A DNA stretch of 63,009 nucleotides from Nemertoderma westbladi. Its lineage: Eukaryota > Animalia > Xenacoelomorpha. Positions 10,440 to 58,790 of this stretch are shown here, piece by piece. Both the position numbers and the translations under genes were made by a program. The number at the start of each line of letters is the position of its first letter. The stretch's first letter is position 1. Below the pieces are notes generated by a model. It saw nothing but the letters and a program-made list of their open reading frames with translations, did no database searches and was not told the DNA's origin. The stretch lies in NCBI GenBank assembly GCA_032718475.1, contig JAUCBJ010003826.1, positions 1 to 63,009 on the forward strand, in the 5' to 3' direction.

Positions 10440-13400
10440 CACAAGTTCGATAATTCAGGTGTACTATACAAAGAGTCCACAAGCTCGATAATTCAGGTGT
10501 ACTATACAAAGAGTCCACAAGTTCGATAATTCAGGTGTACTATACAAAGAGTCCAAAAGTTCGATAATTCAGGTGTACTATACAAAGAGTCCACAAGTTC
10601 GATAATTCAGGTGTACTATACAAAGAGTCCACAAGTTCGATAATTCAGGTGTACTATACAAAGAGTCCACAAGTTCGATAATTTAGATATACTATACAAA
10701 GAGTCCACAAGTTCGATAATTTAGATATACTATACAAAGAGTCCACAAGTTCGATAATTCAGGTGTACTATACAAAGAGTCCACAAGTTCGATAATTTAG
10801 ATATACTATACAAAGAGTCCACAAGTTCGATAATTCAGATGTACTATACAAAGAGTCAACAAGTTCGATAATTCAGGTGTACTATACAAAGAGTCCACAA
10901 GTTCGATAATTCAGGTGTACTATACAAAGTGTCCACAAGTTCGATAATTCAGGTGTACTATACAAAGAGTCCACCAGTTCGATAATTCAGGTGTACTATA
11001 CAAAGAGTCCACAAGTTCGATAATTCAGATGTACTATACAAAGAGTCCACAAGTTCGATAATTCAGATGTACTATACAAAGAGTCCACAAGTTCGATAAT
11101 TCAGATGTACTATACAAAGAGTCCACAAGTTCGATAATTCAGATGTACTATACCAAGAGTCCACAAGTTCGATAATTTAGATATACTATACAAAGAGTCC
11201 ACAAGTTCGATAATTCAGGTGTACTATACAAAGAGTCCACAAGTTCGATAATTCAGGTTTACTATACAAAGAGTCCACAAGTTCGATAATTCAGATGTAC
11301 TATACAAAGAGTCCACAAGTTCGATAATTCAGATGTACTATACAAAGAGTCCACAAGTTCGATAATTCAGATGTACTATACAAAGAGTCCACAAGTTCGA
11401 TAATTTAGATATACTATACAAAGAGTCCACAAGTTCGATAATTCAGGTGTACTATACAAAGAGTCCACAAGTTCGATAATTCAGGTGTACTATACAAAGA
11501 GTCCACAAGTTCGATAATTCAGGTGTACTATACAAAGAGTCCACAAGTTCGATAATTCAGATGTACTATACAAAGAGTCCACAAGTTCGATAATTCAGGT
11601 GTACTATACAAAGAGTCCACAAGTTCGATAATTCAGGTGTACTATACAAAGAGTCAACAAGTTTGATAATTCAGATGTACTATACAAAGAGTCCACAAGT
11701 TCGATAATTCAGGTGTACTATACAAAGAGTCCACAAGTTTGATAATTCAGGTGTACTATACAAAGAGTCAACAAGTTTGATAATTCAGATATACTATACA
11801 AAGAGTCCACAAGTTCGATAATTCAGGTGTACTATACAAAGAGTCCACAAGTTCGATAATTCAGGTGTACTATACAAAGAGTCCACAAGTTCGATAATTC
11901 AGATGTACTATACAAAGAGTCCACAAGTTCGATAATTTAGATATACTATACAAAGAGTCCACAAGTTCGATAATTCAGGTGTACTATACAAAGAGTCCAC
12001 AAGTTCGATAATTCAGGTGTACTATACAAAGAGTCCACAAGTTCGATAATTCAGATGTACTATACAAAGAGTCCACAAGTTCGATAATTCAGGTGTACTA
12101 TACAAAGAGTCCACAAGTTCGATAATTCAGGTGTACTATACAAAGAGTCCACAAGTTCGATAATTCAGATGTACTATACAAAGAGTCCACAAGTTCGATA
12201 ATTCAGGTGTACTATACAAAGAGTCCACAAGTTCGATAATTCAGGTGTACTATACAAAGAGTCAACAAGTTTGATAATTCAGATGTACTATACAAAGAGT
12301 CCACAAGTTCGATAATTCAGGTGTACTATACAAAGAGTCCACAAGTTCGATAATTCAGGTGTACTATACAAAGAGTCAACAAGTTTGATAATTCAGATAT
12401 ACTATACAAAGAGTCCACAAGTTCGATAATTCAGGTGTACTATACAAAGAGTCCACAAGTTCGATAATTCAGGTGTACTATACAAAGAGTCCACAAGTTC
12501 GATAATTCAGATGTACTATACAAAGAGTCCACAAGTTCGATAATTCAGGTGTACTATACAAAGAGTCCACAAGTTCGATAATTCAGGTGTACTATACAAA
12601 GAGTCCACAAGTTTGATAATTCAGATGTACTATACAAAGAGTCCACAAGTTCGATAATTCAGGTGTACTATACAAAGAGTCCACAAGTTCGATAATTCAG
12701 GTGTACTATACAAAGAGTCCACAAGTTTGATAATTCAGATGTACTATACAAAGAGTCCACAAGTTCGATAATTCAGGTGTACTATACAAAGAGTCCACAA
12801 GTTCGATAATTCAGGTGTACTATACAAAGAGTCCACAAGTTCGATAATTCAGGTGTACTATACAAAGAGTCCACAAGTTCGATAATTCAGATGTACTATG
12901 CAAAGAGTCCACAAGTTCGATAATTCAGATGTACTATACAAAGAGTCCACAAGTTCGATAATTCAGGTGTACTATACAAAGAGTCCACAAGTTCGATAAT
13001 TCAGGTGTACTATACAAAGAGCCCACAAGTTCAATAACTCAGGTGTACTATACAAAGAGTCCACAAGTTCAATAACTCAGGTGTACTATACAAAGAGTCC
13101 ACAAGTTCGATAATTCGGATGTACTATACAAAGAGTCCACCAGTTCGATAATTCAGATGTACTATACAAAGAGTCCACCAGTTCGATAATTCAGGTGTAC
13201 TATACAAAGAGTCCACAAGTTTGATAATTCAGGTGTACTATACAAAGAGTCCACAAGTTCGATAATTCAGGTGTACTATACAAAGAGTCCACAAGTTCGA
13301 TAATTCAGATGTACTATACAAAGAGTCCACAAGTTCGATAATTCAGGTGTACTATACAAAGAGTCCACAAGTTTGATAATTCAGATGTACTATACAAAGA

Positions 13401-16400
13401 GTCCACAAGTTCGATAATTCAGGTGTACTATACAAAGAGTCCACAAGTTCGATAATTCAGGTGTACTATACAAAGAGTCCACAAGTTCGATAATTCAGGT
13501 GTACTATACAAAGAGTCCACAAGTTCGATAATTCAGATGTACTATACAAAGAGTCCACAAGTTCGATAATTCAGGTATACTATACAAAGAGTCCACAAAT
13601 TCGATAATTCAGATGTACTATACAAAGAGTCCACAAGTTCGATAATTCAGGTGTACTATACAAAGAGTCCATAAGTTCGATAATTCAGGTGTACTATACA
13701 AAGAGTCAACAAGTTTGATAATTCAGATGTACTATACAAAGAGTCCACAAGTTCGATAATTCAGGTGTACTATACAAAGAGTCCACAAGTTCGATAATTC
13801 AGGTGTACTATACAAAGAGTCAACAAGTTTGATAATTCAGATATACTATACAAAGAATCCACAAGTTCGATAATTCAGATATACTATACAAAGAATCCAC
13901 AAGTTCGATAATTCAGGTGTACTATACAAAGAGTCCACAAGTTCAATAATTCAGGTGTACTATACAAAGAGTCCACAAGTTCGATAATTCAGATGTACTA
14001 TACAAAGAGTCCACAAGTTCGATAATTCAGGTGTACTATACAAAGAGTCCACAAGTTCGATAATTCAGGTGTACTATACAAAGAGTCCACAAGTTCGATA
14101 ATTCAGGTTTACTATACAAAGAGTCCACAAGTTCGATAATTCAGGTGTACTATACAAAGAGTCCACAAGTTCGATAATTCAGATGTACTATACAAAGAGT
14201 CCACAAGTTCGATAATTTAGATATACTATACAAAGAGTCCACAAGTTCGATAATTCAGGTGTACTATACAAAGAGTCCACAAGTTCGATAATTCAGGTGT
14301 ACTATACAAAGAGTCCACAAGTTCGATAATTCAGATGTACTATACAAAGAGTCCACAAGTTCGATAATTCAGGTGTACTATACAAAGAGTCCACAAGTTC
14401 GATAATTCAGGTGTACTATACAAAGAGTCCACAAGTTCGATAATTCAGATGTACTATACAAAGAGTCCACAAGTTCGATAATTCAGGTGTACTATACAAA
14501 GAGTCCACAAGTTCGATAATTCAGGTGTACTATACAAAGAGTCAACAAGTTTGATAATTCAGATGTACTATACAAAGAGTCCACAAGTTCGATAATTCAG
14601 GTGTACTATACAAAGAGTCCACAAGTTCGATAATTCAGGTGTACTATACAAAGAGTCAACAAGTTTGATAATTCAGATATACTATACAAAGAGTCCACAA
14701 GTTCGATAATTCAGGTGTACTATACAAAGAGTCCACAAGTTCGATAATTCAGGTGTACTATACAAAGAGTCCACAAGTTCGATAATTCAGATGTACTATA
14801 CAAAGAGTCCACAAGTTCGATAATTCAGGTGTACTATACAAAGAGTCCACAAGTTCGATAATTCAGGTGTACTATACAAAGAGTCCACAAGTTTGATAAT
14901 TCAGATGTACTATACAAAGAGTCCACAAGTTCGATAATTCAGGTGTACTATACAAAGAGTCCACAAGTTCGATAATTCAGGTGTACTATACAAAGAGTCC
15001 ACAAGTTTGATAATTCAGATGTACTATACAAAGAGTCCACAAGTTCGATAATTCAGGTGTACTATACAAAGAGTCCACAAGTTCGATAATTCAGGTGTAC
15101 TATACAAAGAGTCCACAAGTTCGATAATTCAGGTGTACTATACAAAGAGTCCACAAGTTCGATAATTCAGATGTACTATGCAAAGAGTCCACAAGTTCGA
15201 TAATTCAGATGTACTATACAAAGAGTCCACAAGTTCGATAATTCAGGTGTACTATACAAAGAGTCCACAAGTTCGATAATTCAGGTGTACTATACAAAGA
15301 GCCCACAAGTTCAATAACTCAGGTGTACTATACAAAGAGTCCACAAGTTCAATAACTCAGGTGTACTATACAAAGAGTCCACAAGTTCGATAATTCGGAT
15401 GTACTATACAAAGAGTCCACCAGTTCGATAATTCAGATGTACTATACAAAGAGTCCACCAGTTCGATAATTCAGGTGTACTATACAAAGAGTCCACAAGT
15501 TTGATAATTCAGGTGTACTATACAAAGAGTCCACAAGTTCGATAATTCAGGTGTACTATACAAAGAGTCCACAAGTTCGATAATTCAGATGTACTATACA
15601 AAGAGTCCACAAGTTCGATAATTCAGGTGTACTATACAAAGAGTCCACAAGTTTGATAATTCAGATGTACTATACAAAGAGTCCACAAGTTCGATAATTC
15701 AGGTGTACTATACAAAGAGTCCACAAGTTCGATAATTCAGGTGTACTATACAAAGAGTCCACAAGTTCGATAATTCAGGTGTACTATACAAAGAGTCCAC
15801 AAGTTCGATAATTCAGATGTACTATACAAAGAGTCCACAAGTTCGATAATTCAGGTATACTATACAAAGAGTCCACAAGTTCGATAATTCAGATGTACTA
15901 TACAAAGAGTCCACAAGTTCGATAATTCAGGTGTACTATACAAAGAGTCCATAAGTTCGATAATTCAGGTGTACTATACAAAGAGTCAACAAGTTTGATA
16001 ATTCAGATGTACTATACAAAGAGTCCACAAGTTCGATAATTCAGGTGTACTATACAAAGAGTCCACAAGTTCGATAATTCAGGTGTACTATACAAAGAGT
16101 CAACAAGTTTGATAATTCAGATATACTATACAAAGAATCCACAAGTTCGATAATTCAGATATACTATACAAAGAATCCACAAGTTCGATAATTCAGGTGT
16201 ACTATACAAAGAGTCCACAAGTTCAATAATTCAGGTGTACTATACAAAGAGTCCACAAGTTCGATAATTCAGATGTACTATACAAAGAGTCCACAAGTTC
16301 GATAATTCAGGTGTACTATACAAAGAGTCCACAAGTTCGATAATTCAGGTGTACTATACAAAGAGTCCACAAGTTCGATAATTCAGGTGTACTATACAAA

Positions 16401-19400
16401 GAGTCCACAAGTTCGATAATTCAGGTGTACTATACAAAGAGTCCACAAGTTTGATAATTCAGATGTACTATACAAAGAGTCCACAAGTTTGATAATTCAG
16501 ATGTACTATACAAAGAGTCCACAAGTTCGATAATTCAGGTGTACTATACAAAGAGTCCACAAGTTCGATAATTCAGGTGTACTATACAAAGAGTCCACAA
16601 GTTCGATAATTCAGGTGTACTATACATAGAGTCCACAATTTCGATAATTCAGATGTACTATACAAAGAGTCCATAAGTTCGATAATTCAGGTGTACTATA
16701 CAAAGAGTCAACAAGTTTGATAATTCAGATGTACTATACAAAGAGTCCACAAGTTCGATAATTCAGGTGTACTATACAAAGAGTCCACAAGTTCGATAAT
16801 TCAGGTGTACTATACAAAGAGTCAACAAGTTTGATAATTCAGATATACTATACAAAGAATCCACAAGTTCGATAATTCAGATATACTATACAAAGAATCC
16901 ACAAGTTCGATAATTCAGGTGTACTATACAAAGAGTCCACAAGTTCAATAATTCAGGTGTACTATACAAAGAGTCCACAAGTTCGATAATTCAGATGTAC
17001 TATACAAAGAGTCCACAAGTTCGATAATTCAGGTGTACTATACAAAGAGTCCACAAGTTCAATAATTCAGGTGTACTATACAAAGAGTCCACAAGTTCGA
17101 TAATTCAGATGTACTATACAAAGAGTCCACAAGTTCGATAATTCAGGTGTACTATACAAAGAGTCCACAAGTTCGATAATTCAGGTGTACTATACAAAGA
17201 GTCCACAAGTTCGATAATTCAGGTGTACTATACAAAGAGTCCACAAGTTCGATAATTCAGGTGTACTATACAAAGAGTCCACAAGTTTGATAATTCAGAT
17301 GTACTATACAAAGAGTCCACAAGTTTGATAATTCAGATGTACTATACAAAGAGTCCACAAGTTCGATAATTCAGGTGTACTATACAAAGAGTCCACAAGT
17401 TCGATAATTCAGGTGTACTATACAAAGAGTCCACAAGTTCGATAATTCAGGTGTACTATACATAGAGTCCACAATTTCGATAATTCAGATGTACTATACA
17501 AAGAGTCCATAAGTTCGATAATTCAGGTGTACTATACAAAGAGTCAACAAGTTTGATAATTCAGATGTACTATACAAAGAGTCCACAAGTTCGATAATTC
17601 AGGTGTACTATACAAAGAGTCCACAAGTTCGATAATTCAGGTGTACTATACAAAGAGTCAACAAGTTTGATAATTCAGATATACTATACAAAGAATCCAC
17701 AAGTTCGATAATTCAGATATACTATACAAAGAATCCACAAGTTCGATAATTCAGGTGTACTATACAAAGAGTCCACAAGTTCAATAATTCAGGTGTACTA
17801 TACAAAGAGTCCACAAGTTCGATAATTCAGATGTACTATACAAAGAGTCCACAAGTTCGATAATTCAGGTGTACTATACAAAGAGTCCACAAGTTCGATA
17901 ATTCAGGTGTACTATACAAAGAGTCCACAAGTTCGATAATTCAGGTGTACTATACAAAGAGTCCACAAGTTCGATAATTCAGGTGTACTATACAAAGAGT
18001 CCACAAGTTTGATAATTCAGATGTACTATACAAAGAGTCCACAAGTTTGATAATTCAGATGTACTATACAAAGAGTCCACAAGTTCGATAATTCAGGTGT
18101 ACTATACAAAGAGTCCACAAGTTCGATAATTCAGGTGTACTATACAAAGAGTCCACAAGTTCGATAATTCAGGTGTACTATACATAGAGTCCACAAGTTC
18201 GATAATTCAGATGTACTATACAAAGAGTCCACAAGTTTGATAATTCAGATGTACTATACAAAGAGTCCACAAGTTCGATAATTCAGGTGTACTATACAAA
18301 GAGTCCACAAGTTCGATAATTCAGGTGTACTATACAAAGAGTCCACAAGTTCGATAACTCAGGTGTACTATACAAAGAGTCCACAAGTTCGATAATTTGG
18401 ATGTACTATACAAAGAGTCCACCAGTTCGATAATTCAGATGTACTATACAAAGAGTCCACCAGTTCGATAATTCAGGTGTACTATACAAAGAATCCACAA
18501 GTTTGATAATTCAGGTGTACTATACAAAGAGTCCACAAGTTCGATAATTCAGGTGTACTATACAAAGAGTCCACAAGTTCGATAATTCAGATGTACTATA
18601 CAAAGAGTCCACAAGTTCGATAATTCAGGTGTACTATACAAAGAGTCCACAAGTTCGATAATTCAGGTGTACTATACAAAGAGTCCACAAGTTTGATAAT
18701 TCAGATGTACTATACAAAGAGTCCACAAGTTCGATAATTCAGGTGTACTATACAAAGAGTCCACAAGTTCGATAATTCAGGTGTACTATACAAAGAGTCC
18801 ACAAGTTCGATAATTCAGGTATACTATACAAAGAGTTCACAAGTTCGATAATTCAGGTGTACTATACAAAGAGTCCACAAGTTCGATAATTCAGATGTAC
18901 TATACAAAGAGTCCACAAGTTCGATAATTCAGGTGTACTATACAAAGAGTCCACAAGTTCGATAATTCAGATGTACTATACAAAGAGTCCATAAGTTCGA
19001 TAATTCAGGTGTACTATACAAAGAGTCCACAAGTTCGATAATTCAGATGTACTATACAAAGAGTCCACAAGTTCGATAATTCAGGTGTACTATACAAAGA
19101 GTCCACAAGTTCGATAATTCAGGTGTACTATACAAAGAGTCCACAAGTTCGATAATTCAGGTGTACTATACAAAGAGTCCACAAGTTCGATAATTCAGAT
19201 GTACTATACAAAGAGTCCACAAGTTCGATAATTCAGATATACTATACAAAGAGTCCACAAGTTCGATAATTCAAATGTACTATACAAAGAGTCCACAAGT
19301 TCGATAATTCAGGTGTACTATACAAAGAGTCCACCAGTTCGATAATTCAGGTGTACTATACAAAGAGTCCACAAGTTCGATAATTCAGGTGTACTATACG

Positions 19401-22400
19401 AAGAGTCCACAAGTTCGATAATTCAGGTGTACTATACAAAGAGTCCACAAGTTCGATAATTCAGGTGTACTATACAAAGAGTCCACCAGTTCGATAATTC
19501 AGGTGTACTATACAAAGAGTCCACAAGTTCGATAATTCAGGTGTACTATACAAAGAGTCCACACGTTCGATAATTCAGGTATACTATACAAAGAGTCCAC
19601 AAGTTCGATAATTCAGGTGTACTATACAAAGAGTCCACCAGTTCGATAATTCAGGTGTACTATACAAAGAGTCCACAAGTTCGATAATTCAGGTGTACTA
19701 TACAAAGAGTCCACAGGTTTGATAATTCAGGTGTACTATACAAAGAGTCCACAAGTTCGATAATTCAGATGTACTATACAAAGAGTCCACAAGTTCGATA
19801 ATTCAGGTGTACTATACAAAGAGTCCACAAGTTCGATAATTCAGGTGTACTATACAGAGAGTCCACAAGTTTGATAATTTAGGTGTACTATACAAAGAGT
19901 CCACCAGTTCGATAATTCAGGTGTACTATACAAAGAGTCCACAAGTTCGATAATTCAGGTGTACTATACAAAGAGTCCACAAGTTCGATAATTCAGGTGT
20001 ACTATACAAAGAGTCCACAAGTTTGATAATTCAGGTGTACTATACAAAGAGTCCACAAGTTCGATAATTCAGGTGTACTATACAAAGAGTCCACAAGTTC
20101 GATAATTCAGGTGTACTATACAAAGAGTCCACAAGTTCGATAATTCAGGTGTACTATACAAAGAGTCCACAAGTTTGATAATTCAGGTGTACTATACAAA
20201 GAGTCCACAAGTTCGATAATTCAGATATACTATACAAAGAGTCCACAAGTTCGATAATTCAGATGTACTATACAAAGAGTCCACAAGTTCGATAATTCAG
20301 GTGTACTATACAAAGAGTCCACCAGTTTGATAATTCAGGTGTACTATACAAAGAGTCCACAAGTTCGATAATTCAGGTGTACTATACAAAGAGTCCACAA
20401 GTTCGATAATTCAGGTGTACTATACAAAGAGTCCACAAGTTTGATAATTCAGATGTACTATACAAAGAGTCCACAAGTTCGATAATTCAGGTGTGCTATA
20501 CAAAGAGTCCACAAGTTCGATAATTCAGGTGTACTATACAAAGAGTCCACAAGTTCGATAATTCAGATGTACTATACAAAGAGTCCACAAGTTCGATAAT
20601 TCAGGTGTACTATACAAAGAGTCCACAAGTTTGATAATTCAGATGTACTATACAAAGAGTCCACAAGTTCGATAATTCAGGTGTACTATACAAAGAGTCC
20701 ACAAGTTCGATAATTCAGGTGTACTATACAAAGAGTCCACAAGTTCGATAATTCAGGTGTACTATACAAAGAGTCCACAGGTTCGATAATTCAGATGTAC
20801 TATACAAAGAGTCCACAAGTTCGATAATTCAGATGTACTATACAAAGAGTCCACAAGTTCGATAATTCAGGTGTACTATACAAAGAGTCCACAAGTTCGA
20901 TAATTCAGGTGTACTATACAAAGAGTCCACAAGTTCGATAACTCAGGTGTACAATACAAAGAGTCCACAAGTTCGATAATTCAGATGTACTATACAAAGA
21001 GTCCACCAGTTCGATAATTCAGATGTACTATACAAAGAGTCCACCAGTTCGATAATTCAGGTGTACTATACAAAGAGTCCAAAGTTTGATAATTCAGGTG
21101 TACTATACAAAGAGTCCACAAGTTCGATAATTCAGGTGTACTATACAAAGAGTCCACAAGTTCGATAATTCAGATGTACTATACAAAGAGTTCACAAGTT
21201 CGATAATTCAGATGTACTTTACAAAGAGTCCACAAGTTCGATAATTCAGGTGTACTATACAAAGAGTCCACAAGTTCGATAATTCAGATGTACTATACAA
21301 AGAGTCCACAAGTTCGATAATTCAGGTGTACTATACAAAGAGTCCACAAGTTCGATAATTCAGATGTACTATACAAAGAGTCCACAAGTTCGATAATTCA
21401 GATGTACTATACAAAGAGTCCACAAGTTCGATAATTCAGGTGTACTATACAAAGAGTCCACAAGTTCGATAATTCAGGTGTACTATACAAAGAGTCAACA
21501 AGTTCGATAATTCAGGTGTACTATACAAAGAGTCCACAAGTTCGATAATTCAGATGTACTATACAAAGAGTCCACCAGTTTGATAATTCAGGTGTACTAT
21601 ACAAAGAGTCCACAAGTTCGATAATTCAGGTGTACTATACAAAGAGTCCACAAGTTCGATAATTCAGGTGTACTATACAAAGAGTCCACAAGTTCGATAA
21701 TTCAGGTGTACTATACAAAGAGTCCACAAGTTCGATAATTCAGGTGTACTATACAAAGAGTCCACAAGTTCGATAATTCAGGTGTACTATACAAAGAGTC
21801 CACAAGTTCGATAATTCAGATGTACTATACAAAGAGTCCACAAGTTCGATAATTCAGGTGTACTATACAAAGAGTCCACAGGTTTGATAATTCAGGTGTA
21901 CTATACAAAGAGTCCACAAGTTCGATAATTCAGATGTACTATACAAAGAGTCCACAAGTTCGATAATTCAGGTGTACTATACAAAGAGTCCACAAGTTCG
22001 ATAATTCAGGTGTACTATACAGAGAGTCCACAAGTTTGATAATTTAGGTGTACTATACAAAGAGTCCACCAGTTCGATAATTCAGGTGTACTATACAAAG
22101 AGTCCACAAGTTCGATAATTCAGGTGTACTATACAAAGAGTCCACAAGTTCGATAATTCAGGTGTACTATACAAAGAGTCCACAAGTTTGATAATTCAGG
22201 TGTACTATACAAAGAGTCCACAAGTTCGATAATTCAGGTGTACTATACAAAGAGTCCACAAGTTCGATAATTCAGGTGTACTATACAAAGAGTCCACAAG
22301 TTCGATAATTCAGGTGTACTATACAAAGAGTCCACAAGTTTGATAATTCAGGTGTACTATACAAAGAGTCCACAAGTTCGATAATTCAGATATACTATAC

Positions 22401-24497
22401 AAAGAGTCCACAAGTTCGATAATTCAGATGTACTATACAAAGAGTCCACAAGTTCGATAATTCAGGTGTACTATACAAAGAGTCCACCAGTTTGATAATT
22501 CAGGTGTACTATACAAAGAGTCCACAAGTTCGATAATTCAGGTGTACTATACAAAGAGTCCACAAGTTCGATAATTCAGGTGTACTATACAAAGAGTCCA
22601 CAAGTTTGATAATTCAGATGTACTATACAAAGAGTCCACAAGTTCGATAATTCAGGTGTGCTATACAAAGAGTCCACAAGTTCGATAATTCAGGTGTACT
22701 ATACAAAGAGTCCACAAGTTCGATAATTCAGATGTACTATACAAAGAGTCCACAAGTTCGATAATTCAGGTGTACTATACAAAGAGTCCACAAGTTTGAT
22801 AATTCAGATGTACTATACAAAGAGTCCACAAGTTCGATAATTCAGGTGTACTATACAAAGAGTCCACAAGTTCGATAATTCAGGTGTACTATACAAAGAG
22901 TCCACAAGTTCGATAATTCAGGTGTACTATACAAAGAGTCCACAGGTTCGATAATTCAGATGTACTATACAAAGAGTCCACAAGTTCGATAATTCAGATG
23001 TACTATACAAAGAGTCCACAAGTTCGATAATTCAGGTGTACTATACAAAGAGTCCACAAGTTCGATAATTCAGGTGTACTATACAAAGAGTCCACAAGTT
23101 CGATAACTCAGGTGTACAATACAAAGAGTCCACAAGTTCGATAATTCAGATGTACTATACAAAGAGTCCACCAGTTCGATAATTCAGATGTACTATACAA
23201 AGAGTCCACCAGTTCGATAATTCAGGTCTACTATACAAAGAGTCCACAAGTTTGATAATTCAGGTGTACTATACAAAGAGTCCACAAGTTCGATAATTCA
23301 GGTGTACTATACAAAGAGTCCACAAGTTCGATAATTCAGATGTACTATACAAAGAGTTCACAAGTTCGATAATTCAGATGTACTTTACAAAGAGTCCACA
23401 AGTTCGATAATTCAGGTGTACTATACAAAGAGTCCACAAGTTCGATAATTCAGATGTACTATACAAAGAGTCCACAAGTTCGATAATTCAGGTGTACTAT
23501 ACAAAGAGTCCTCAAGTTCGATAATTCAGATGTACTATACAAAGAGTCCACAAGTTCGATAATTCAGATGTACTATACAAAGAGTCCACAAGTTCGATAA
23601 TTCAGGTGTACTATACAAAGAGTCCACAAGTTCGATAATTCAGGTGTACTATACAAAGAGTCAACAAGTTCGATAATTCAGGTGTACTATACAAAGAGTC
23701 CACAAGTTCGATAATTCAGATGTACTATACAAAGAGTCCACAAGTTCGATAATTCAGGTGTACTATACAAAGAGTCCACAAGTTCGATAATTCAGGTGTA
23801 CTATACAAAGAGTCCACAAGTTCGATAATTCAGGTGTACTATACAAAGAGTCCACAAGTTCGATAATTCAGGTGTACTATACAAAGAGTCCACAAGTTCG
23901 ATAATTCAGGTGTACTATACAAAGAGTCCACAAGTTCGATAATTCAGATGTACTATACAAAGAGTCCACAAGTTCGATAATTCAGGTGTACTATACAAAG
24001 AGTCCACAAGTTCGATAATTCAGATGTACTATACAAAGAGTCCACAAGTTCGATAATTCAGATGTACTATACAAAGAGTCCACAAGTTCGATAATTCAGA
24101 TGTACTATACAAAGAGTCCACAAGTTCGATAATTCAGATGTACTATACAAAGAGTCCACAAGTTCGATAATTCAGATGTACTATACAAAGAGTCCACAAG
24201 TTCGATAATTCAGGTGTACTATACAAAGAGTCCACAAGTTTGATAATTCAGGTGTACTATACAAAGAGTCCACACGTTCGATAATTCAGGTGTACTATAC
24301 AAAGAGTTCACAAGTTCGATAATTCAGGTGTACTATACAAAGAGTCCACAAGTTCGATAATTCAGGTGTACTATACAAAGAGTCCACAAGTTTGATATTT
24401 CAGGTGTACTATACAAAGAGTCCACAAGTTCGATAATTCAGGTGTACTATACAAAGAGTCCACAAGTTCGATAATTCAGGTGTACTATACAAAGAGT
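10440..24497. repeat. 38-bp satellite array, about 370 copies
   Basis: Head-to-tail unit CACAAGTTCGATAATTCAG(G/A)TGTACTATACAAAGAGTC with few variants and no unique spacers. Confidence 0.99.
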
Positions 24498-24995
24498 TTC
24501 CCGCCAACCACTTAAAGTAGAACCATTCGCATTAGCTAGTCAAGATAACTATAAATCAATTGTAATTAAATGAATCCTTTCCGGCTAACTCATATCCGGA
24601 CTATACGGGCCAGACCTATTTTTTTTTATCAATTTCATTAGGGAAAAGGAGCAGGTTTCAGATCTTATTTGCCAGCCAGAATGATATCCCGAATACTCAG
24701 GTCGCAGATTTACATGAGTGATTACAAACACGATTAATCCTGAAACGAAATGTCCGGACACAAGTCATCCATCTAGTTTGATAAACCTATAAAGGTTGCA
24801 GAAAGGTTCCCATCTGAAAGATTTTCTTATATTTACTCCAAACAATAGGCCTGCGTTTTGTAATCCTTCATTTATAATCACTTATCGCATCTTTGTTGTA
24901 ATTGCCGATTCTTGCACTTTTGGGTTGAATTATATTATTACTGCTATTTATTTAGAGCGCCGCGTGTAATGTAAGTTTCCACTACTGGAATACAG

Positions 24996-25106
24996 TTTTG
25001 CTTTGCTTTGCTTTGCTTTGCTTTGCTTTGCTTTGCTTTGCTTTGCTTTGCTTTGCTTTGCTTTGCTTTGCTTTGCTTTGCTTTTTGCTTTTTGCTTTTT
25101 GCTTTG
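24996..25106. repeat. (CTTTG)n pentanucleotide microsatellite just upstream of a splice acceptor
   Basis: Direct reading of the sequence. Confidence 0.97.
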
Positions 25107-25132
25107 TTTAATTATACAATATTTTTTTATAG

Positions 25133-26123
25133 CGATGCTAGATACGATAGACGCGAAGATAGATATCAGTCGGAATACAGAAGAGACGATAGGAGAGATG
25201 ACTACGGAGATAGAAGGTACCATGACGACAGACGAGATACTGGAGACAGGAGGTACCATGAAGAAAGTCGTTATTATGATGATATGCGGGACAGATACAG
25301 AAATGACCCTAATGATGACAGACGTGATTACAGGCCGGATGACAGACGTGATTATAGGCCGGATGACAGACGTGATTACAGGCCGGATGACAGACGTGAT
25401 TACAGGCCGGATGACAGACGTGATTACAGGCCGGATGACAGACGTGATTATAAGCCGGATGACAGACGTGATTACAGGCCGGATGACAGACGTGATTATA
25501 AGCCGGATGACAGACGTGATTACAGGCCGGATGACAGACGTGATTATAAGCCGGATGACAGACGTGATTACAGGCGTGAGACTGAAGGCGATAGACGGCA
25601 CTATGATGACAGAGGTAGAGATATAAGATATGATGACGATAGACGCATGATTGATAGTGAGGAGAGATATCAGGAAGATAGGCGAGACAAATACAGAGAT
25701 ATTAGATACCCCCCAGCTGAAGGCAGCCGTGATGACAGGCGGGATGAGAGACCTGGAGACAGGGCTGATGACAGGCGTGGTTCCGAAGAAAGCAGAAGGT
25801 ACCCCCCAGCTGATATGCGTGATGCTGGAGAGGAGATTAAGCCAAGGTTCCGCGCTAACGGGCAGGACGCTGTAGGAGAGAGAAGATATCAGGATGAGAA
25901 TCGCGATGATGGGAGGAGACTAGGCGATGGAAGACGAGGGGGTGACGGTGAAGACCGTCGTGGAAGGCGGGGAGATGAAAGGCGAGAAAGGAGAGACGAG
26001 GGTCGGGATCGGAGGCCCGATAGAGATTACGACGACAGCGGTTACGAGGAGAAAGGGGATGATACCGGTGATGGTAAACCCGAGAGGAGGGGGAAGACCG
26101 CGCCTGCGTCTCCCAAACCCCCG
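25133..26123 (+). CDS. Internal host-gene exon encoding an Arg/Asp-rich low-complexity region
   Basis: Acceptor tttttttatAG ends at 25132 and donor GTAAGT starts at 26124. The frame is open throughout (DARYDRREDRY...KTAPASPKPP), with a purine-rich composition distinct from the flanks. Confidence 0.8.
25312..25575 (+). repeat. 24-bp coding tandem repeat (RPDDRRDY/KPDDRRDY, about 11 copies)
   Basis: Unit ccggatgacagacgtgatta(c/t)a(gg/ag). Confidence 0.95.
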
Positions 26124-26334
26124 GTAAGTGGAGAGAAGGAATTTATATGAACTAACTATTGGCCGACCGACTATTCTTCTGATCTGGAGTTAGAACCTCT
26201 CAGCAATGTATGATCGCATTGCTTTTCCTTATTTAAAATTTGATCGCAAAGTAAGAGCAAAGGCTCAACTTGTACGAATTTGAAAATTTTATTATTTATT
26301 ATGATGTAATGTAAATGGTTTTGTTCAGAAGTGG

Positions 26335-26437
26335 AAAAAATGAGAAAGCGCGTCACCGGGGGTTGAACCAGCGCTATACGTACGTTTCGGCCTAACAGGC
26401 CTCATCAGTAGCGCTAACCAGCTCAGCCACTAGCCCC
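26335..26437 (-). ncRNA. tRNA-derived Pol III unit (SINE-like head) containing a hammerhead ribozyme
   Basis: Minus strand: GGGGCTAG-TGGCTGAGCTGG (A box)-TT-[hammerhead]-GGTTCAACCCC (B box)-CGGTGACGCGCTTTCTCA-TTTTTT (terminator). Confidence 0.75.
26370..26415 (-). ncRNA. Minimal type I hammerhead ribozyme
   Basis: AGCGCUA-CUGAUGA-GGCCU guu AGGCC-GAAA-CGUACG-UA^-UAGCGCU. Perfect core, 7-bp stem I, 5-bp stem II, palindromic ACGUACGU stem III. Predicted cut between 26377 and 26376. Confidence 0.9.
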
Positions 26438-28209
26438 TGACACTCACACTCCCACCTAATCCACTTCTATTGAACGAATTATTTATTATTATTATAGCGT
26501 GATCATGTGAGGTTACCAGATACGACACCCCAAAATGTATATGGTCCTTTTGTGACCTTAATTCTAATTAACCAAATTTTAAACTCACTATTAAATAATG
26601 TGTTAATGTATGTAGGCCTTCGTAATAATATGTATCAGTCACTATGCAGTCAGACGACAAACCAAATTATTATCCATGACTGAGATTGATTGATCTACTT
26701 AGATGAGTTTGTGTATATCGATTGTTATGAATTATATTTTTCTCGTTGTCTCGTATACTCCCTCCGAAATTATGACCGTGCTGATATTAATAGCTATATA
26801 TTTATATGCTCCGTTCCAGAATTGGAGTGAGAAGAGTCGATTCGCTGTTCTTGGAGAAGAAAATGATTAGATGATACACTTTCGTTGTCATGGTTACTGG
26901 ACAATTACAATATTTCCATGGTGATAAGTTGTGGAGCCCCCTCTGGTAGTCTGTTGTGCCTTGCGCAATGGTTCTATCAGAGGGGGCGAAACCATATTAA
27001 TGTGATTAATTAATATTAGGCCTTGGGATTGAAATGGTTATCTCTACGATGATATATTACGCTATTTACGTAGATTATTAGCTTTCAATTGGTTTTTCGG
27101 TTTGCGAGAATAATGAGAGTTTTTCCACTATTCGAATATGTCGAATTTTAATGATATTATATGAAGAATTTCACTTTTAGCATATTGCGAAAAGATATTC
27201 GATGCCATTATATTGAAAGCAAAGCGGAGAAGTTTAATGACATAATGGGTGGTTTGAATAAAAACAAGTATGTACTCTAAAGTATATACTTCATGGATAA
27301 GTAAAGAGTAAAGTTTTAAGGGGAAGTATTGAGTAAAGTATAGAGTAAAGTTTAGTTGATGGCTTGAATAAAACAATACTTATGCGCATACTCTTTACTC
27401 TATACTTTACTTGTGCTAGCAAACCAATCACAGTTTGCCTATTAAACGTAAAGCTTGTAATTGGCTGATGGCACATTATTGTTGCTGTTGCTATGTAAAC
27501 GCCATAAACAAATATACATAGGCTAAATTTGTTTTCTTTGTAATAACTAATCGCCTGTAAATTTCCTTTCAGTTCTTCAGAATCGGTACCGGTGTGGCGT
27601 GGAATGTACGTACACTCCTAAAGGAAGTATAAAATTGTGTGGTAGCTATAGTTATTAGTGTTAGCTAGTGATATTTATGGTAGCTTGTTTATCTCAAAAA
27701 ATAGCTATATTATTCGTAAATTTTTTTAAAATAAATTTAGTTTCTTTTAACATTTTTTTTACTTTGTGTTTTTTCATGGTAGCTTGTATTTAAATGTTAG
27801 CTTGTACTTTTAAAATAATATGCCAAATAGTGTAATACAAAATGGAATAACAATAGTATAATACATGATGAAATAACAACTAAACTAAAAATTAGTAAAA
27901 TAGCTTTATAATGAAAATTTTTAAAACACTAGCTACCATTAAAAAACACTAGCTACCTTAAAAATACATCGGCTATCAAAGATTTAGTACAAGCCGATCA
28001 TATTCATAAAAAATTTATAAACGTCGCTTACATAACTATGTTAAATGTCCATTAAAATGGTGAAAAACACTCCCCCCCACTAAGCCACATCCCGACCTCT
28101 GCCAACCTATTGAAAATTTGAACTGCTTATTATTCAGTCTTTTCCTGTAAAGTGTGTATACCTTTGCTTCACACCGGTACCACACCTTCAATTCCATAGT
28201 AAAACTCGT

Positions 28210-28606: not shown

Positions 28607-30638
28607 TCAGCCTTGAATAGGCTTTCCAGGATTCTCATTCCGTTTCTGTTGACCAGCTGCACGCAACGCTGTCTCAGTTAATTCTTCTGCCGGTTCGTAT
28701 TCGTCATTAATCTCGGGTGTTCGCGCTTTTGAAGACCTTTAGCAGTTTAACCTGCCAAAATTTATATGTCTTTTAGTTAATTAAAACACCTTTAGCATAC
28801 GACAATATTTTATGCTAATAAACAAAACATTAACCGAAGCCAGCCCATGCGCGATCATTCACCCGATGGATACACCCGGGAGGCTGAATTCGGCTGCTTA
28901 AATTTTATTATTGCAGTGTAAGGTTGCAGTGTAAACCTACTGTATTATTCGATTGATCGTTAATAATTAATTTCTGACAGATATTATTGGCTTTCGGGAA
29001 ATATTAACAGTTCCTTTAGGACGTGGCGCTCTATCTATTTAAACAGAGCTAGGACTTATACTAAACGCAACGATACTGCTTATGATTAAAGTATAAGGCG
29101 CATTCTTTAGGAAATGCTTTGTTACCAATCACAGTCATGCACACTATTCTGCCGACCGTCAGTAAATTTGATCACACATAAAGAGAGCAGCAATTGACTC
29201 ATGTAGGGTCTGCTAACAATATGATTAGTACAGTTAAATTAAGTGGGTGAGACTAGTTAGCTGGATAACAGTTATACTTTCGATAATTTAAGCAGTTTTA
29301 CTAGAGTTCTTCCCAAAAGCCGGTGGTCTGGCGAAATATGGGAACACAACAACAGAATCATATAAAGAATCATATGACTACATGACTATACGAGGATACC
29401 AACTACCCTTATTCCCCGAAGCTCCCGTCCAACACAGAGGATGAGCATACAGATAGGAAATTCAGTTCAGTAGCTCTGGGATAGGTCAAAATCAACGCCC
29501 ACTCAAATTCTATTGGCCGATACGGACAGCAGGGCTGAGGCAACCTCCCTAAGCTGGTTGGCCGATCGAACAGAACCCAGATACCTTCGTACAGCACATC
29601 AGCCAATAAGCTGGTAGCTTGCACTATTTTAGCTATAGATCCCTTTTAGAGTATTCTAGCGACCGGGGGGGAACTGGCCAGCAAGGCAAACGAATCAGTT
29701 ATCCCACAAAAGCTTTTACACTCGGGAGCATCCTCTTCATCTGGGTTCATCGGAACTACATCTGATAAATAAAGCCCGACATTGTGAAGGATGAAACACG
29801 CCATTATCACTCGCGGAACACTTTCAATCGCAATACGCATGGAATGCTTTAGAATTGTAAAACGACGTTTTATAGCGCCAAACATCCGCTCAACAATGGA
29901 ACGTTCGGACTTGTGCATTTTGTTGAAAGTGTAGTCAGCGTGAGACTCAGGATTTTCGTACGGCGTCATTAGGTATGGAGCAATACCATACCCTTGATCC
30001 GCAAGGAGCAAGCAGTTCCTGTTTCTTAAATATGACGCCAATCCAGAAGTTTTAAAGATGCGCGAATCGTGAACCGATCCCGGCCACTGGGCAACTACAC
30101 TTGTTGCCTCCATAAAACAATTGCAGGTGGCTTGAACATTTATAGAAGGAAACTTTTTTCTATTTAGAAATTCGTTTGGGTAGTATCTATTTGGCGGTTT
30201 TTCTATGGGAATGTGTGTTCCATCTACACAACCGATGCACTGTGGGAAATTGAATTTATATTGCCACTGCCCCCTAGACGTCAGTATGTCCTGGTCGGTG
30301 ACAGGAAACTTTATCCAATGATGTTTCTTTTCCACTATTTTGGCAATAGTGGAATGAAACGTTCTACAAACCGTAGAATGGTTCACACCCATATCCTCAC
30401 CGACACCTAGCTGAAAACCAGGATCAGCCAAATAACGCAATGAGATCTCTACCCGCTGTTTATTTGACAGACAACCACCCCGCGTTTCGCCCTTATCTTC
30501 GCCCAAAAAATGGGTTGCGATCCAATCTACATTATCCTCACGAAATCTAAACAACCGCTTATAATCATGAACATAGGCAACTTGCCGAGCCGCGTACTCC
30601 TTAACTTTCCTGGGTTGAATTACTAAAATATCCGACAT
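28607..30638 (-). pseudogene. HARBI1-like DDE transposase disrupted near its C-terminus by a solo LTR
   Basis: FPQCIGCVDGTHIPI, NRKKFPSINVQATC, WPGSVHDSRIF, LLADQGY, RSIVERMFGAIKRRF, CFILHN. The true C-terminus (PEINDEYEPAEELTETALRAAGQQKRNE...*) resumes in frame at 28717-28607. Confidence 0.92.
28718..29720. mobile_element. Solo LTR (1003 bp) with a 6-bp TSD
   Basis: Begins TGTTCGCG and ends TTTTACA, flanked by CTCGGG at 28712-28717 and 29721-29726. Excision restores the transposase frame. Confidence 0.85.
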
Positions 30639-32331
30639 CTTTCCTCTTAACAGGGCTTATTATTATAATAATAAATAATGTATTTTTTAAATAACTATTT
30701 AAAAAAAAAATTTGATTATTAAATCATAGCAGCGCTTTGCAAGTGTTTAGCTAATTTTTCTTATTTTTTTAAAAATAGTTATTCAAAATATGCAAGTAAA
30801 ATTACAGGCACTATATAGCATGGGTATCAAAATTTTGAATTTTGCTTATACTCTTTTTATATGTGTTTTGGTTGTATATCATAGTGTTCTAGAATATAGT
30901 TGGAACTTCTCCCACGATACTATGGTAGCTAGTAAATATTTTTGTGGTAGATAGTAATTTTTTATGTTAGCTATAAAAAAAAGAAAAGTTTTATTTTATG
31001 TAAATAATTGTTTAATTTTTCTGAAGTTTAGTTTAAGTTTCCTGAATGAGATCCATTACATTACTCTACGAAAATAATTTAGGCTAGTTAACCCAGCAAC
31101 AATAGAGGCTTGTTAACAAACCAAAAACACATACAGTATACATACAAAAATTAAAAAATAATCAGTTTTAAACATAAATACGTACTGTACTATTACTAAG
31201 TAGTAAAAAAATAACTTGCTCCATAAAAACACTAGCTACAGTACTACTGTAACAAATAATTATTTCAAAAATAGGTGTATTACAGTAGGCAGTAAATAAC
31301 ACTAACTACCATAAAAAATACTACCAAAACATATATAACACGAGTATAAATAAAATTCAAAATTTTGGTACCCATGCAGCCATGTGCCATGCTATACTAA
31401 TATCAAATTACATTGGTGCTAATATGACCTGTTTCAAACATAGTGAATGTAGTTTTCCACAATCAAAATAGCGAGAACTAATGGAATGTATGTAGTAAAA
31501 GTATAAACGGAAACATGTTGTATGGCCATATATAGTACCATCGTAGTTCTTTAGTACTTTTTTTAGTTGATAATGTATTTTAAATATTTAAATATTTCAA
31601 ATACACACTGAAAATGGTTGATCCAGGCAATAGTAGCAGCAGGCTGTTCCTAATTACTATACCACTGGTATGCAAGTGTTAATTCGAAAAGCTATAAAAA
31701 TTCTGGAATTCCTGTAACCAGCTACAACCGATTGAATGGATAAATCCAACATGAAGTATTCCTTTCAAGCAACCTCTTGACCTACCTTGCTATTTTTGAA
31801 GTATATACTTCTTTTATTCAAACCAACTCTACTCAATACTTTACTCAATACTTTACTCTAACCTTTACTCGTATACTTTACTCGTATACTTTACTCGTAT
31901 ACTTTTCTTGTATACTTTACTTGTTTTATTCAAACCAATTTAACTTTTTTGGAGTACCTACTTGAGTATAAGTATATACTTGTTTTTATTCAAACAATTA
32001 TGTACATTTAGATTAAATAATAATACATCAAATAAGTAAGCTTACACAAATAATCACTTTTGTAAAACAATAATTTATTTCATTCATCAGTTAATAAACT
32101 GATAAACAACACACCTCAGGTTGTAGTGAATATTAGTATTCCTTTTAAATTAGTAATAATATTAATGTCATTGACCGCAAACACACGTGCGTGCGTTATT
32201 AGCATATTATTAGTTCACTTTACATACCAATAAAATATGAGATGATGCCTGATGTCTGACAGAAGGAGAACCCGCGAATACTGTCGTCATCCCCGGGGGG
32301 ACGTGTCTATCTGTATCCACTTTCAAAGTCG

Positions 32332-52500: not shown

Positions 52501-52721
52501 AGTCTCCTGTTTATCCTTGAGGCTACTTATCCTCGCCGATACCGTCTTGCTAAGTCCAGTCGTTGGTTCTTTGGGCGCAGGTATTATCAACTCCCGGTAT
52601 CGCTTTGCAGGTGGTCCCACTGAGTGTCCCTCCTATCCATATATATCATATATTATATATATGAAGACAAATGAAATAAATGCTACTGTTTGTATTTAAG
52701 AAAAGTGATGTTTTTATTCTA

Positions 52722-52764
52722 CAGATGATATTTCGGCTATATTGCATAGCCTTTATCAAATCTA
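52722..52764 (-). ncRNA. Variant Penelope hammerhead motif (copy 1)
   Basis: AGAU-UUGAUAA-A-GGCUAU gcaau AUAGCC-GAAA-UA-UC^-AUCU, followed by AAUAAA. The core deviates from CUGANGA. Confidence 0.6.
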
Positions 52765-52856
52765 TTTTTTATTATTCTTATTTGAATTTGTTTACATAGA
52801 ATATCGTAATTCTTAGTTTGTTGTTAAGGTAACCTAGACTTAATATAATAAAGTTT

Positions 52857-53505
52857 TTATTGTTGAATGTAGTCATGGAAGGAGTTCAAGCCCTTTAGAT
52901 TAGTGAGCACACTGAGCAGCATACCAATCCAAAATTGTTCTGATTTTCTTAGTTTCTTTATTGTTTCTACGTAGTTGTCCCTTCTTGGTAATTGATCGAT
53001 CAAAATAAATTTCAAGTTTTTGGAGGATTTGTTGTGTTTTTCGATGAAATGCACGCCGATATTGCATCTTTTCACACCTTTTTTTATATGAGATTTATAA
53101 TTTCCAAGCCTCTTCTTGAAATTGATTGTTGAGCCAACACCCTGTAAATTGCATTCTATGCAGATAGCTAAATATACTACATTTTCCGAGTAACAGTTTA
53201 GTCGTTTGTTTATTTTAACAGTCTTGCCTGTAGCTACACATTTGAAATGGTTGGTTTCAATTAAGTAATTTTCACAACAGTCACACTTTTTAGCGCTACA
53301 ATTGTAACAACCAGGATTATCAATGCATGATAATTGTTTGTATGGATTGGATGGTGCTAGAAGTTCTTTTAGGTTTGGGTTTCTTTTATATGCAACAATT
53401 ATTTCGTTTTGAGGTAGTATTTTCCTTGCCATTTTGTTTGACTCTAATATACCATAATGTTTACTGATAAGTCTTTTAAAGTTTGGAGCCATTGGGTTAT
53501 ACGTT
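52857..53505 (-). CDS. Penelope-like C-terminal region: Cys linker and GIY-YIG endonuclease
   Basis: VAYKRNPNLKELL, CYNC..CDCC, LNCYSENVVYLAICIECNLQGVGST..FKKRLGNYKS..VHF..EQFWI..L..GLN. Confidence 0.9.
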
Positions 53506-53997
53506 TTTTATTTATTTTATTATTAACACCTCATATATTATAAAATTATTAATAGAGGGAGAAAATCACCAAGGTTAAAAATTAACACTAATAGGTGAAA
53601 GACAACACTAAATATCTACAACTTAATATTAATCCATGCAGCCATGTACAATACCGACAACTAACAATATTGCATGAATAGTCTCAGTCTAAAAAAATAT
53701 ACAGTAAAACATTAGTGTGACATAAAAACATACATTAAGAAATGAATTTGACATAATAAAATTAGCCTACAGTAAGAAAATTTGATTTCCAACGTCTATG
53801 TAGTCCAGTAAAATATATCTAGTAAGACAACATACATTAAAATAAAATCGACTTGGCAGTCTAGTAAAACTTGTCCAGTCTAAAAAATAAAATACATATA
53901 TACAGTATAAAAATAAAGGGTAATTCAATAGCATTGTCTAAAAATATTGATATTAAATTAAATTAAATTAAAATTAAATTAAAATTGAAGTATTAAA

Positions 53998-56808: not shown

Positions 56809-56837
56809 GAATGGGCGGACGCGACTTTCTCCCTGTC

Positions 56838-57887
56838 TCAGTTTCCCTGGTTCGGTACGGTGGTATCTCGAGGTGTGGGAGGGACAGAACGAGGTGAATC
56901 CGATCCTGTTCCCATTCCCGATGCTCCGTCAAACTGAGAAGCTGGGGTCGATGTGTCGGTGTGGTTAGGAATGGGGGCGGCGGGGGGCAGCGAATTTAAT
57001 CGAGCTGCGTTTTTAGGGCGGGATTGTCGACGGAGGAACGCCTGTTTGGACTGTAACTTAGTTAGATCATTGTCAATAAATATATGACTGGTGTTGGTTG
57101 ACTTATTCAGTTTTACTTTTTCTTTAAGAACGCGAGACTTGCAGTCTATATTGGTAGCCTGAACAATCATCATTGACAATTTATTCTCGTATTGATGGCG
57201 CCGATATAGAACCTTTTCTACACAACCCTCGATGATCCCCAATTCCGCGCTGATGAATTGGTTGACCACCCTGACGTCCGTCTCCTTATCTTCCGGGAGG
57301 GTCAGCCCCCGAATGACAAAATTCTTCTCCCTTTTCTGTTGTTCCCGGAGTTCAATCCCAACGTCGTCAACCGTAATTAGGTTATCCTGAGGGACAGTTT
57401 TTTTCCCGGTTCTTCCCCTGGTAGCTGGAGGAACCTCCGACCACGGGATTGCCGAATCATCGATTCTAGCCGACAGCTCACTTCTGATGGTCGTTCCGAG
57501 GGAACATATATCATCTTTTAAGGTTGTCTGCATACGCGATAATAATTCCCCCATCGAAGTCGAGGATTCCGATTCAACCGAAAGCTTACCCTTTGATTCG
57601 CATCCCGAGCACACGATTTTACAGTATTTACATTTCGCCAAAACTTTTAATTCAGCGACAGATATATTAAGGCACTCTGCGTGGATCCAGGACCCACAGA
57701 TCTCGCACCCCAAACAGTTATTACCAACTACTGGTTTGCAGCAATGCGGACAGGTGTTGGTTTTGGAGCAACCCATATTATGATCTTCAAAAGCCTTTTT
57801 ATCGACAAACAAGGCCGAACAGGAGTCACAGTTGAAAAGTTTCGACATATCAATCGATCTTGATTTGCGACGATCCGCCATAACCAT
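56838..57887 (-). CDS. LINE ORF1 with a PHD finger, coiled coil and RRM-like C-terminal region
   Basis: CPHCC..CLGCEICGSWIHAECL..CSGC; REKNFVIRGL; IFIDNDLTKLQ. Confidence 0.9.
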   Translation of the reverse strand: MVMADRRKSRSIDMSKLFNCDSCSALFVDKKAFEDHNMGCSKTNTCPHCCKPVVGNNCLGCEICGSWIHAECLNISVAELKVLAKCKYCKIVCSGCESKGKLSVESESSTSMGELLSRMQTTLKDDICSLGTTIRSELSARIDDSAIPWSEVPPATRGRTGKKTVPQDNLITVDDVGIELREQQKREKNFVIRGLTLPEDKETDVRVVNQFISAELGIIEGCVEKVLYRRHQYENKLSMMIVQATNIDCKSRVLKEKVKLNKSTNTSHIFIDNDLTKLQSKQAFLRRQSRPKNAARLNSLPPAAPIPNHTDTSTPASQFDGASGMGTGSDSPRSVPPTPRDTTVPNQGN

Positions 57888-58188
57888 TATATATCAAATA
57901 CCAATACAATTTACAATTCAGTGTTAGGAGTTCGGATAAGTGCGTATGTCAGTATGTAGGCTGCTGGACTAGTAACTAAAGTAACGTTGTTACTAAAACT
58001 GTTGGATTTTTAATACTTTTGTTTTTTCCTTTATAATTTCTTGCTTCCGATCCTTGCATGTTCCTAACTTCTTCAAAGACTGTATTTACATGATCTGCAT
58101 TATGTCCACACTTAATTAGGTGGTTCTTGTACACGTTACCTTGAGTCACGTAGTCTTTATCTTTTGTGTTAATTCTTTTCAACCTTAA

Positions 58189-58790
58189 CCCTATTAAACC
58201 CGGGGGGGGGGGGGGGGGTCAATATGACCCCCTTCCCCGTGGTTTTTTTATTATAATTATGAAACAAACGCAGTTGGGAATCTGAAATTTTATGACTTTT
58301 CCTAAAAATCTATTGTCTTCCTAGTAGTGAAAACCGTTTTCAAAAATATTGGATACTTTTCGAGTTATAGCACCATTTTTTAACCCTACTTTTGGCACTT
58401 TTTTTGAGACGTTTTTTGAAAATTACATATCATTAAATATGAATTGTAACATCTCTATTTTTGATTTACACCGGTTTTTTGGTGTTAGAAAATGGATGGA
58501 ATTCATATAAATTGAGTAAGAAATTTCAAACTTGTTGTTTTCGGTGGGTGCCAAATTTTGGTGCCAGCACCAAATTTTGAAATAAGTCAATTTTGTAAAT
58601 TGATTGTTTGAAACTTGTTTTTTACGCAATTGGGGTTTTTTGGGGTTCTGGATTGGATGAAATATATACGAGTTGCACCAAGCGTATCAAACTTGTATTT
58701 TTCGGTGCTGTGTGCAAATTCTGGTGCTAGCACGAAATTTTGAAAATCCATTCAATAGATAAAATTGCTTGTGACAATTTATTTCAAACC
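58189..58790. mobile_element. Probable piggyBac-type non-autonomous element end
   Basis: TTAA|CCCTATT...GGGGGTCAATATGACCCCC at the point where Penelope homology stops. The opposite end was not found. Confidence 0.5.

Follow-up and report, generated by a model that had tools for sequence, protein, structure and literature searches.

A dispersed high-copy repeat of Nemertoderma westbladi in which tRNA-type A and B boxes flank a hammerhead motif

As a rule, SINEs live as parasites of LINEs, and we know of no settled function for the hammerhead ribozymes that occur in animal repeats. Several described systems share features with the repeat reported here. The very abundant short repeat Sm-alpha of schistosomes has, in the accessible descriptions, a tRNA-derived Pol III head and a type I hammerhead, the promoter preceding the ribozyme and the units being arranged in tandems. 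Non-LTR retrozymes (PMC7229834; PMC7761336; bioRxiv 10.64898/2026.07.22.740005) are non-coding, 170-400 nt long, carry a type I hammerhead whose palindromic stem III is short, are likely mobilised by Penelope-like elements and occur as dispersed monomers; in the available text of these reports they are defined as tandem repeats and described without promoters, and a tRNA head is not reported. The features shared by EN+ Penelope-like elements and their pLTR ends are, according to the available parts of PMC4209133, PMC8557442 and PMC11167929, an AT-rich target, an optional 3′ tail, inverted partial copies, a hammerhead upstream of the 3′ end and two tail blocks. tRNA-derived SINEs are short and dispersed and have A and B boxes and target duplications (PMC5786205, in part), and by the argument of the same source, the head of a SINE would be cut off by a ribozyme placed behind it. 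A promoter and a self-cleaving ribozyme share the same DNA in L1Tc Pr77 as well, where, by the excerpt of PMC3383444 that was available, the ribozyme is of another class (HDV-like), lies at the 5′ end of a LINE and is not tRNA-derived.

In the 63,009-nt stretch of N. westbladi DNA analysed here (the window), the earlier note had reported an A box, a type I hammerhead, a B box and a T6 run within positions 26335-26437 of the minus strand, and each of these was found there. A sequence pattern placed the Pol III A box, which derives from a tRNA D-arm, at 26429-26418. It is followed on the same strand by the 5′ strand of stem I (26415-26409), the core CUGAUGA (26408-26402), a stem II of 5 bp (26401-26397/26393-26389) with the loop GUU, the GAAA (26388-26385), a short palindromic stem III and the 3′ strand of the 7-bp stem I (26376-26370), and the whole hammerhead with its stems and core covers 26370-26415. 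The Pol III B box, derived from a T-loop, abuts it at 26369-26359, and the T6 run, a possible Pol III terminator that is partly paired in the predicted rod (see below), lies at 26340-26335. CUGANGA, GAAA and UH, together with stems I and II, thus follow the type I order, and the GUA triplet places A17 at 26377, in agreement with the cut predicted earlier between 26377 and 26376. The Rfam model Hammerhead_1 (RF00163) matched 26371-26414 with 23.3 bits (E 0.0009 in a search of 151 nt); its gathering score of 34 was reached by nothing across the whole window, and ARAGORN found no tRNA in the window. Simulated sequence of 5.9 Mb contained no motif of equal quality (stem II of at least 5, stem I of at least 7) and five looser ones. 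That an A box and a B box should both lie no more than 40 nt away, one on either side, has a joint chance of about 3e-5 at 55% GC, and by the pattern used this is the sole A-box/B-box pair of the window. Together the two boxes form a tRNA-like head as in tRNA-derived SINEs.

Besides the extent of the feature (see below), two parts of the first description had to be changed. The hammerhead had been called minimal, which is not quite accurate, since a short palindromic stem III is present and the bulged base after A9 is absent, as in the "canonical" metazoan type I form in the available part of PMC4209133. The ribozyme had also been thought to replace the anticodon arm. Its location between the boxes stands, but it may not be a replacement, as stem II resembles that very arm. 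Stems I, II and III are all built of repeated short palindromes (26370-26416, minus strand), and a strand swap between two RNAs is possible at any stem. Measured against what is accessible on Sm-alpha, where the promoter is followed by the hammerhead in tandem units, the ribozyme of the present repeat lies between the boxes, so that its predicted cut would separate them, with T6 coming afterwards, and the copy in the window is a single one with a target duplication and a Penelope-like tail.

The 103-nt unit turned out to be only the middle of a larger dispersed repeat, for which an extent of 26335-26437 is too small. The copy in the window occupies 26303-26475 (minus strand) and lacks about 21 nt of the family 5′ end and the optional 3′ extension. 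It is flanked by a 12-bp, AT-rich target-site duplication (minus strand; upstream copy at 26478-26489, with 2 extra bases before the element, downstream copy at 26291-26302), which is known from this single copy; a common 12-mer was present in 15 of 1,161 AT-rich control pairs. Other family members were traced in contigs from four public runs of the same organism (X1 to X4, from three studies), one of which is possibly the source of the window. Matching contigs numbered 1,147 in X1, 2,116 in X2 and 1,437 in X3, with 409, 455 and 386 partial fits, respectively. Summed contig depth, which is inflated by graph branching and does not equal copy number, was 20-51 in the flanks and 1e5-5e5 inside the element. 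The copy number is in the hundreds as a floor and likely in the thousands. A high-copy mobile family, in line with the mobile element suggested earlier, is therefore borne out by 1,147-2,116 contigs per DNA run and by the target duplication; dispersal, shortness and abundance with target duplication are those of a tRNA-derived SINE. Loose ends clustered at 26315 (64, 58 and 49 contigs), at 26301 (17 and 18) and at 26475 (21, 27 and 21). About 21 further letters beyond 26475 were common to other copies, and about 25 or more beyond 26301 to some; assembled contig ends were not taken as element ends, and the contig listings of the runs contained no sharp 5′ boundary of the family. A head-to-tail joint was absent from the joints listed, in which short contigs would hide one, and there was no tandem arrangement in the window. 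With its tRNA head, the repeat differs from the non-LTR retrozymes as far as these are described in the available reports; the window holds a single copy.

Variation between copies was analysed mainly in X3, where 18 positions varied at at least 1% of depth. Within 26335-26447, this applied to 2 of 56 constrained positions (ribozyme or boxes) versus 15 of 57 free ones (p=0.001), with classes that were set after the variants were seen and a depth weighting that favours large subfamilies. The difference to the free positions persisted for the ribozyme alone (1 of 40, p=0.002) and was not significant for the boxes alone (1 of 16, p=0.17); at CpG positions, variation was seen in 1 of 10 that are constrained, compared with 5 of 6 that are free. 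The varying sites of the ribozyme region were N7, loop II, loop III and C11.1, and the free N7 was the only varying core position. A U at the usually conserved C11.1 (26389, minus strand) made up 27-37% of depth in X1-X3 and about 13% in X4, and this roughly one third of the depth may represent a slower ribozyme. No variant of the B box reached 1% in X3, and T6 was intact, without a common variant. Two common A-box changes keep the consensus, and a common variant at 26422 turns a G·U pair into A-U. The ribozyme is under selection across the family and is a candidate for self-cleavage. The conservation of the boxes could be structural in cause.

The 173-nt copy is predicted to fold into a single rod of -64.2 kcal/mol (z -3.9; none of 200 shuffles reached this stability), which carries the ribozyme at its tip and is closed by an upstream arm (26437-26475, minus strand) paired with 26355-26323. 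The opposite (plus) strand gave -44.0, and the 107-nt unit alone folded no better than its shuffles (z 0.5). In the predicted rod, positions 26425-26420 of the A box are paired to the B box, by which stem I continues past a 4-nt bulge, with a pair probability of 0.56-0.75. A check for covariation in the rod gave no support for it, as 8 of 13 variants at paired positions kept the pair, against 59% expected for transitions. The predicted pairing probability of stem III in a single molecule is about 0.02, and a lone RNA is therefore predicted to stay mostly uncut. Between two RNAs the stem III palindrome is predicted to form an 8-bp duplex of -9.8 kcal/mol, and motifs with such a short stem III need dimers according to the accessible sections of PMC4209133 and PMC7229834. 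Cleavage is thus predicted mainly for two copies that pair through their palindromic stem III. Some cleavage by a lone RNA is possible, as the active monomer fold lies close to the minimum (1.8 kcal/mol above it). Dimer gating would explain a ribozyme inside its own promoter, and by this model the repeat appears to avoid the loss of the SINE head.

A Pol III transcript of about 100 nt had been proposed as a self-splitting mobile unit. This idea was not supported in view of the low pairing of stem III, of the fact that most family depth runs on past the intact T6, and of the start of copy 26303-26475 about 39 nt upstream of the tRNA-like start; the latter two observations together with the intact T6 argue against a plain Pol III transcript as the template of this copy. 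It is likely the longer rod RNA that is mobile. The upstream arm is included in about one fifth of the X3 depth, which drops about fourfold between 26415 and 26450, close to where Pol III would be expected to start, summed contig depth being a weak measure. A step in X3 depth at the cut site (513k to 405k to 335k) was not used, because graph branching inflates depth and no loose-end cluster is listed there.

The copy lies in antisense orientation in a GT..AG intron of a host gene (26124-26819, plus strand), as follows from an X4 contig that joins 26123 to the letters of 26820-26849 and from the absence of X4 depth from the intron flanks. The same two observations indicate that X4, although labelled "DNA?", behaves like RNA. 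The host exon (24975-26123, plus strand), which is spliced to 26820, is rich in Arg, Asp and Tyr and includes a 24-bp coding tandem repeat. The predicted cut is bridged, with at least 31 letters on each side, by seven of the eight X4 family contigs listed; taken for either strand, these contigs show just that uncut, rejoined or antisense RNA exists.

The window also contains a 5′-truncated Penelope-like element (52670-53507, minus strand) with a GIY-YIG frame, a minimal U3-A8 hammerhead (52759-52727), a 3′ end and a tail, and a second, inverted copy without tail (58862-59299, plus strand), whose hammerhead lies at 59245-59277 and which ends at 59299. The two copies are 96.6% identical over 447 nt, and the bulged minimal U3-A8 type of both hammerheads is described in the part of PMC4209133 that was available; the hammerhead of the repeat is of a different type. 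Longer relatives of the GIY-YIG element carry RT motifs. Pfam detected the GIY-YIG domain in the Penelope relative and no RT family, so that the RT assignment rests on motifs read by eye; a search for a solved structure of this relative found none. This inverted pair of truncated copies (52670-59299) encloses a LINE with endonuclease and RT frames (53998-57893). Elsewhere the window holds a 14-kb satellite (10440-24497; 370 copies of a 38-bp unit, 96% matches), a long inverted repeat with arms about 1.4 kb apart at 4796 (minus strand) and 6166 (plus strand), possibly the ends of a DNA transposon, and a DDE_Tnp_4 transposase frame (29646-30656, minus strand).

The AC-rich 3′ end of the repeat (26303-26329, minus strand) resembles, within the window, the 3′ end of this Penelope-like element, and not a LINE end as in the tRNA-derived SINEs that PMC5786205 covers in its accessible part. 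The word at 26326-26315 agrees in 10 of 12 letters with both Penelope ends (52719 and 59285). A second tail word, with 10 of 11 letters in common, occurs 30 nt on both in the element, as read by eye from loose ends, and in the Penelope tail; of 71 places in the window that share 9 or more of the 12 letters of the first word, solely the Penelope end 52719 has the second at this distance. By eye, 8 of the 18 letters between the two words agree. The 3′ ends of element and Penelope are not at the same offset, and the exact partner was not found. Among the X3 joints listed, 6 of 10 are on opposite strands, as in the Penelope inversions of PMC8557442 (partial text), and the available part of PMC11167929 gives as marks of Penelope a tail that is optional, a target rich in AT and an RT start rich in AC; optional tail, inverted partial copies and AT-rich target are all found in the repeat, as in a Penelope derivative. 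It differs from the EN+ Penelope-like elements, as partially described, by lacking an RT or endonuclease frame, by a ribozyme that is not of the minimal bulged type and by its tRNA head. Two shared tail blocks, inverted joints and the AT-rich target agree with the earlier suggestion of Penelope as the likely helper, without naming the exact one; the Penelope-like element of the window would be a relative of this likely helper.

We give an even chance to the reading in which this repeat, which is non-coding and of high copy number and has its hammerhead motif flanked by the tRNA-type A and B boxes, is a SINE-like retroposon that a Penelope-type RT copies from a rod RNA of about 200-230 nt, the ribozyme of which would cut mainly as a dimer. 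The boxes would recruit Pol III, and templates reaching the tail would arise by read-through of T6 or would start in a unit that lies upstream in a partial tandem, a route proposed for Sm-alpha. The RNA would take on the predicted rod fold, in which the hammerhead forms the tip and stem I is prolonged by pairing of the A box with the B box. A lone RNA would remain mostly whole, so that its cDNA would keep both boxes; uncut RNA is the main template in the accessible part of PMC11167929. Paired copies would be cut at 26377/26376, separating the A box from the B box, by which multimers would be trimmed and linear pieces without a full promoter formed. The Penelope RT would start in the AC-rich tail, and the endonuclease would insert at AT-rich sites. 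As source of the template, Pol III with read-through or tandem source loci again has about an even chance in our estimate, ahead of the promoterless and circular routes that follow.

A Penelope-borne retrozyme without promoter, in which the boxes are tRNA relics kept as the outer stem of the ribozyme and templates are supplied by Pol II reading through host genes or loci in tandem, is the strongest competitor, though an unlikely one. It would suit the intact T6 inside the unit and an upstream arm outside any Pol III transcript, the pairing of the boxes and their conservation at p=0.17, and the family sequence crossing T6 in the spliced-looking run X4; retrozymes are also said to lack promoters in the available text of PMC7761336. 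However, both boxes and the T run that follows the B box at a distance of about 19 nt match the layout of a tRNA gene, the two common changes of the A-box region that fall inside the box keep the consensus (26422), and the fourfold fall in depth near the Pol III start, weak a measure as it is, speaks for a promoter. Rather improbable is a circular retrozyme transcribed by Pol III, for which multimers from tandem loci would be cut to unit length, with the B box first and the A box last, and ligated; only the circle would rejoin the promoter, and RT running round it would yield the upstream sequence. This would account for copies whose first letters lie upstream of where Pol III starts, the rod fold and the dimer-type stem III agree with it, and RtcB circularises animal retrozyme monomers according to the accessible part of PMC7229834. 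But Pol III would stop at T6, the window holds no tandem and the joints listed include none of head-to-tail type, and one 5′ end about 21 nt beyond 26475, followed by unlike flanks, is apparently common to many copies.

We consider it quite improbable that the hammerhead is a mere passenger of a LINE-mobilised tRNA SINE or of a fold-back DNA element. Target duplication and 5′ truncation are generic, several LINE frames are present in the window, and an 8-nt inverted word was seen by eye at the two family ends. The repeat, however, has no poly(A) or simple-repeat tail, its tail words match the Penelope end alone in the window, the ribozyme positions are selectively invariant, and a clean duplication flanks a copy from which both termini are missing, which a cut-and-paste element would not show. 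Least probable of all is a host small-RNA gene of about 105 nt with a vault-like layout that cuts itself as a monomer. The A box-B box pairing and the early T run recall vault RNA, but high copy number and target duplication are at odds with such a gene, as is a 107-nt unit no more stable than shuffled sequence (z 0.5). Vault RNA itself (RF00006) was rejected, as Rfam Vault gave no match at E up to 10 and the family is high-copy, not a low-copy gene.

Stem II, loop II (GUU) and GAAA (26385-26401, minus strand) resemble the anticodon arm of tRNA-Asn and the bases following it, a likeness that was put to the test. Three words of the element, chosen with the tRNA-Asn lead in mind, occurred in order at 17 sites of viral contigs, mostly from giant viruses, and all 17 were tRNA-Asn(GUU). 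In a panel of 106 arms (4 of them Asn) fetched without anticodon words, the score of stem II plus GAAAC was 26 for Asn and 16 for the isotype that came next, the best arm being phage-borne. Hammerhead stems drawn at random did as well in 6-7 of 3,000 trials; with eukaryote-type arms 43-73 of 3,000 did so, and 141-178 of 3,000 without GAAAC, so that p ranges post hoc from 0.002 to 0.06. When the whole element was aligned to 148 tRNAs, Asn did not stand out (scores of 41.5 for Asp and 40 each for Ile and Asn), this panel being viral and bacterial, uneven by isotype and partly picked with words of the element itself. The D-arm word is common to Ile, Met and Asp in the arm panel, and GAU in loop II takes up 40-52% of depth in X1-X3. 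Derivation of stem II and its loop from tRNA-Asn is slightly favoured; the likeness of stem III to the Rfam consensus suits borrowing from an existing hammerhead. Much more tentative, and unlikely as a whole, is a hammerhead built on a tRNA-Asn scaffold, in which the D-arm strand would have become stem I, the anticodon arm stem II, the anticodon loop II, the next bases GAAA and the A and B boxes the outer stem, within a Penelope-dependent SINE that transcribes itself and splits its own promoter by the cut, so that only uncut or re-ligated (circular) RNA would be fertile.

With respect to novelty, the earlier note knew of no description of this architecture. Its nested order was not met in the literature searched, but with Sm-alpha a SINE-like Pol III element that carries a hammerhead has been described, so that novelty is partial. 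In the accessible parts of the articles cited above and of PMC6765202, PMC2770079, PMC10886601, PMC8490949, PMC3088659, PMC6155905 and PMC4758252, there was neither a hammerhead between A and B boxes nor a tRNA-headed Penelope-dependent SINE; the supplements of PMC4209133, PMC7229834 and the 2026 preprint may list one. The architecture pattern had no match in metagenome contigs. Looser patterns gave 28 loci in viral contigs, none a hammerhead by stem check, and 95 in metagenomes, which were mostly bacterial tRNAs or chance and included no eukaryote relative. About four of the latter (L050, L093, L120, L069) are bacterial-looking type I hammerheads with a B-box-like word at the end of the 3′ strand of stem I, which shows that such a word can follow a hammerhead without a tRNA. 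Others (among them L032, L045 and L031) were rejected as bacterial tRNAs whose long variable arms match CUGANGA..GAAA. A blastn comparison with phages gave one match, due to chance.

The repeat is thus real and abundant and of the same kind as hammerhead SINEs and retrozymes, and the nesting of the ribozyme between the boxes appears to be a new order. A ribozyme whose cut would separate its own promoter boxes must be gated or repaired, and the repeat therefore lets the function of the cut be asked directly. If the link through the tail holds, it would be a Penelope-dependent SINE, and if the tRNA-Asn reading holds, it would be a case in which the assembly of a ribozyme out of a tRNA can be traced.
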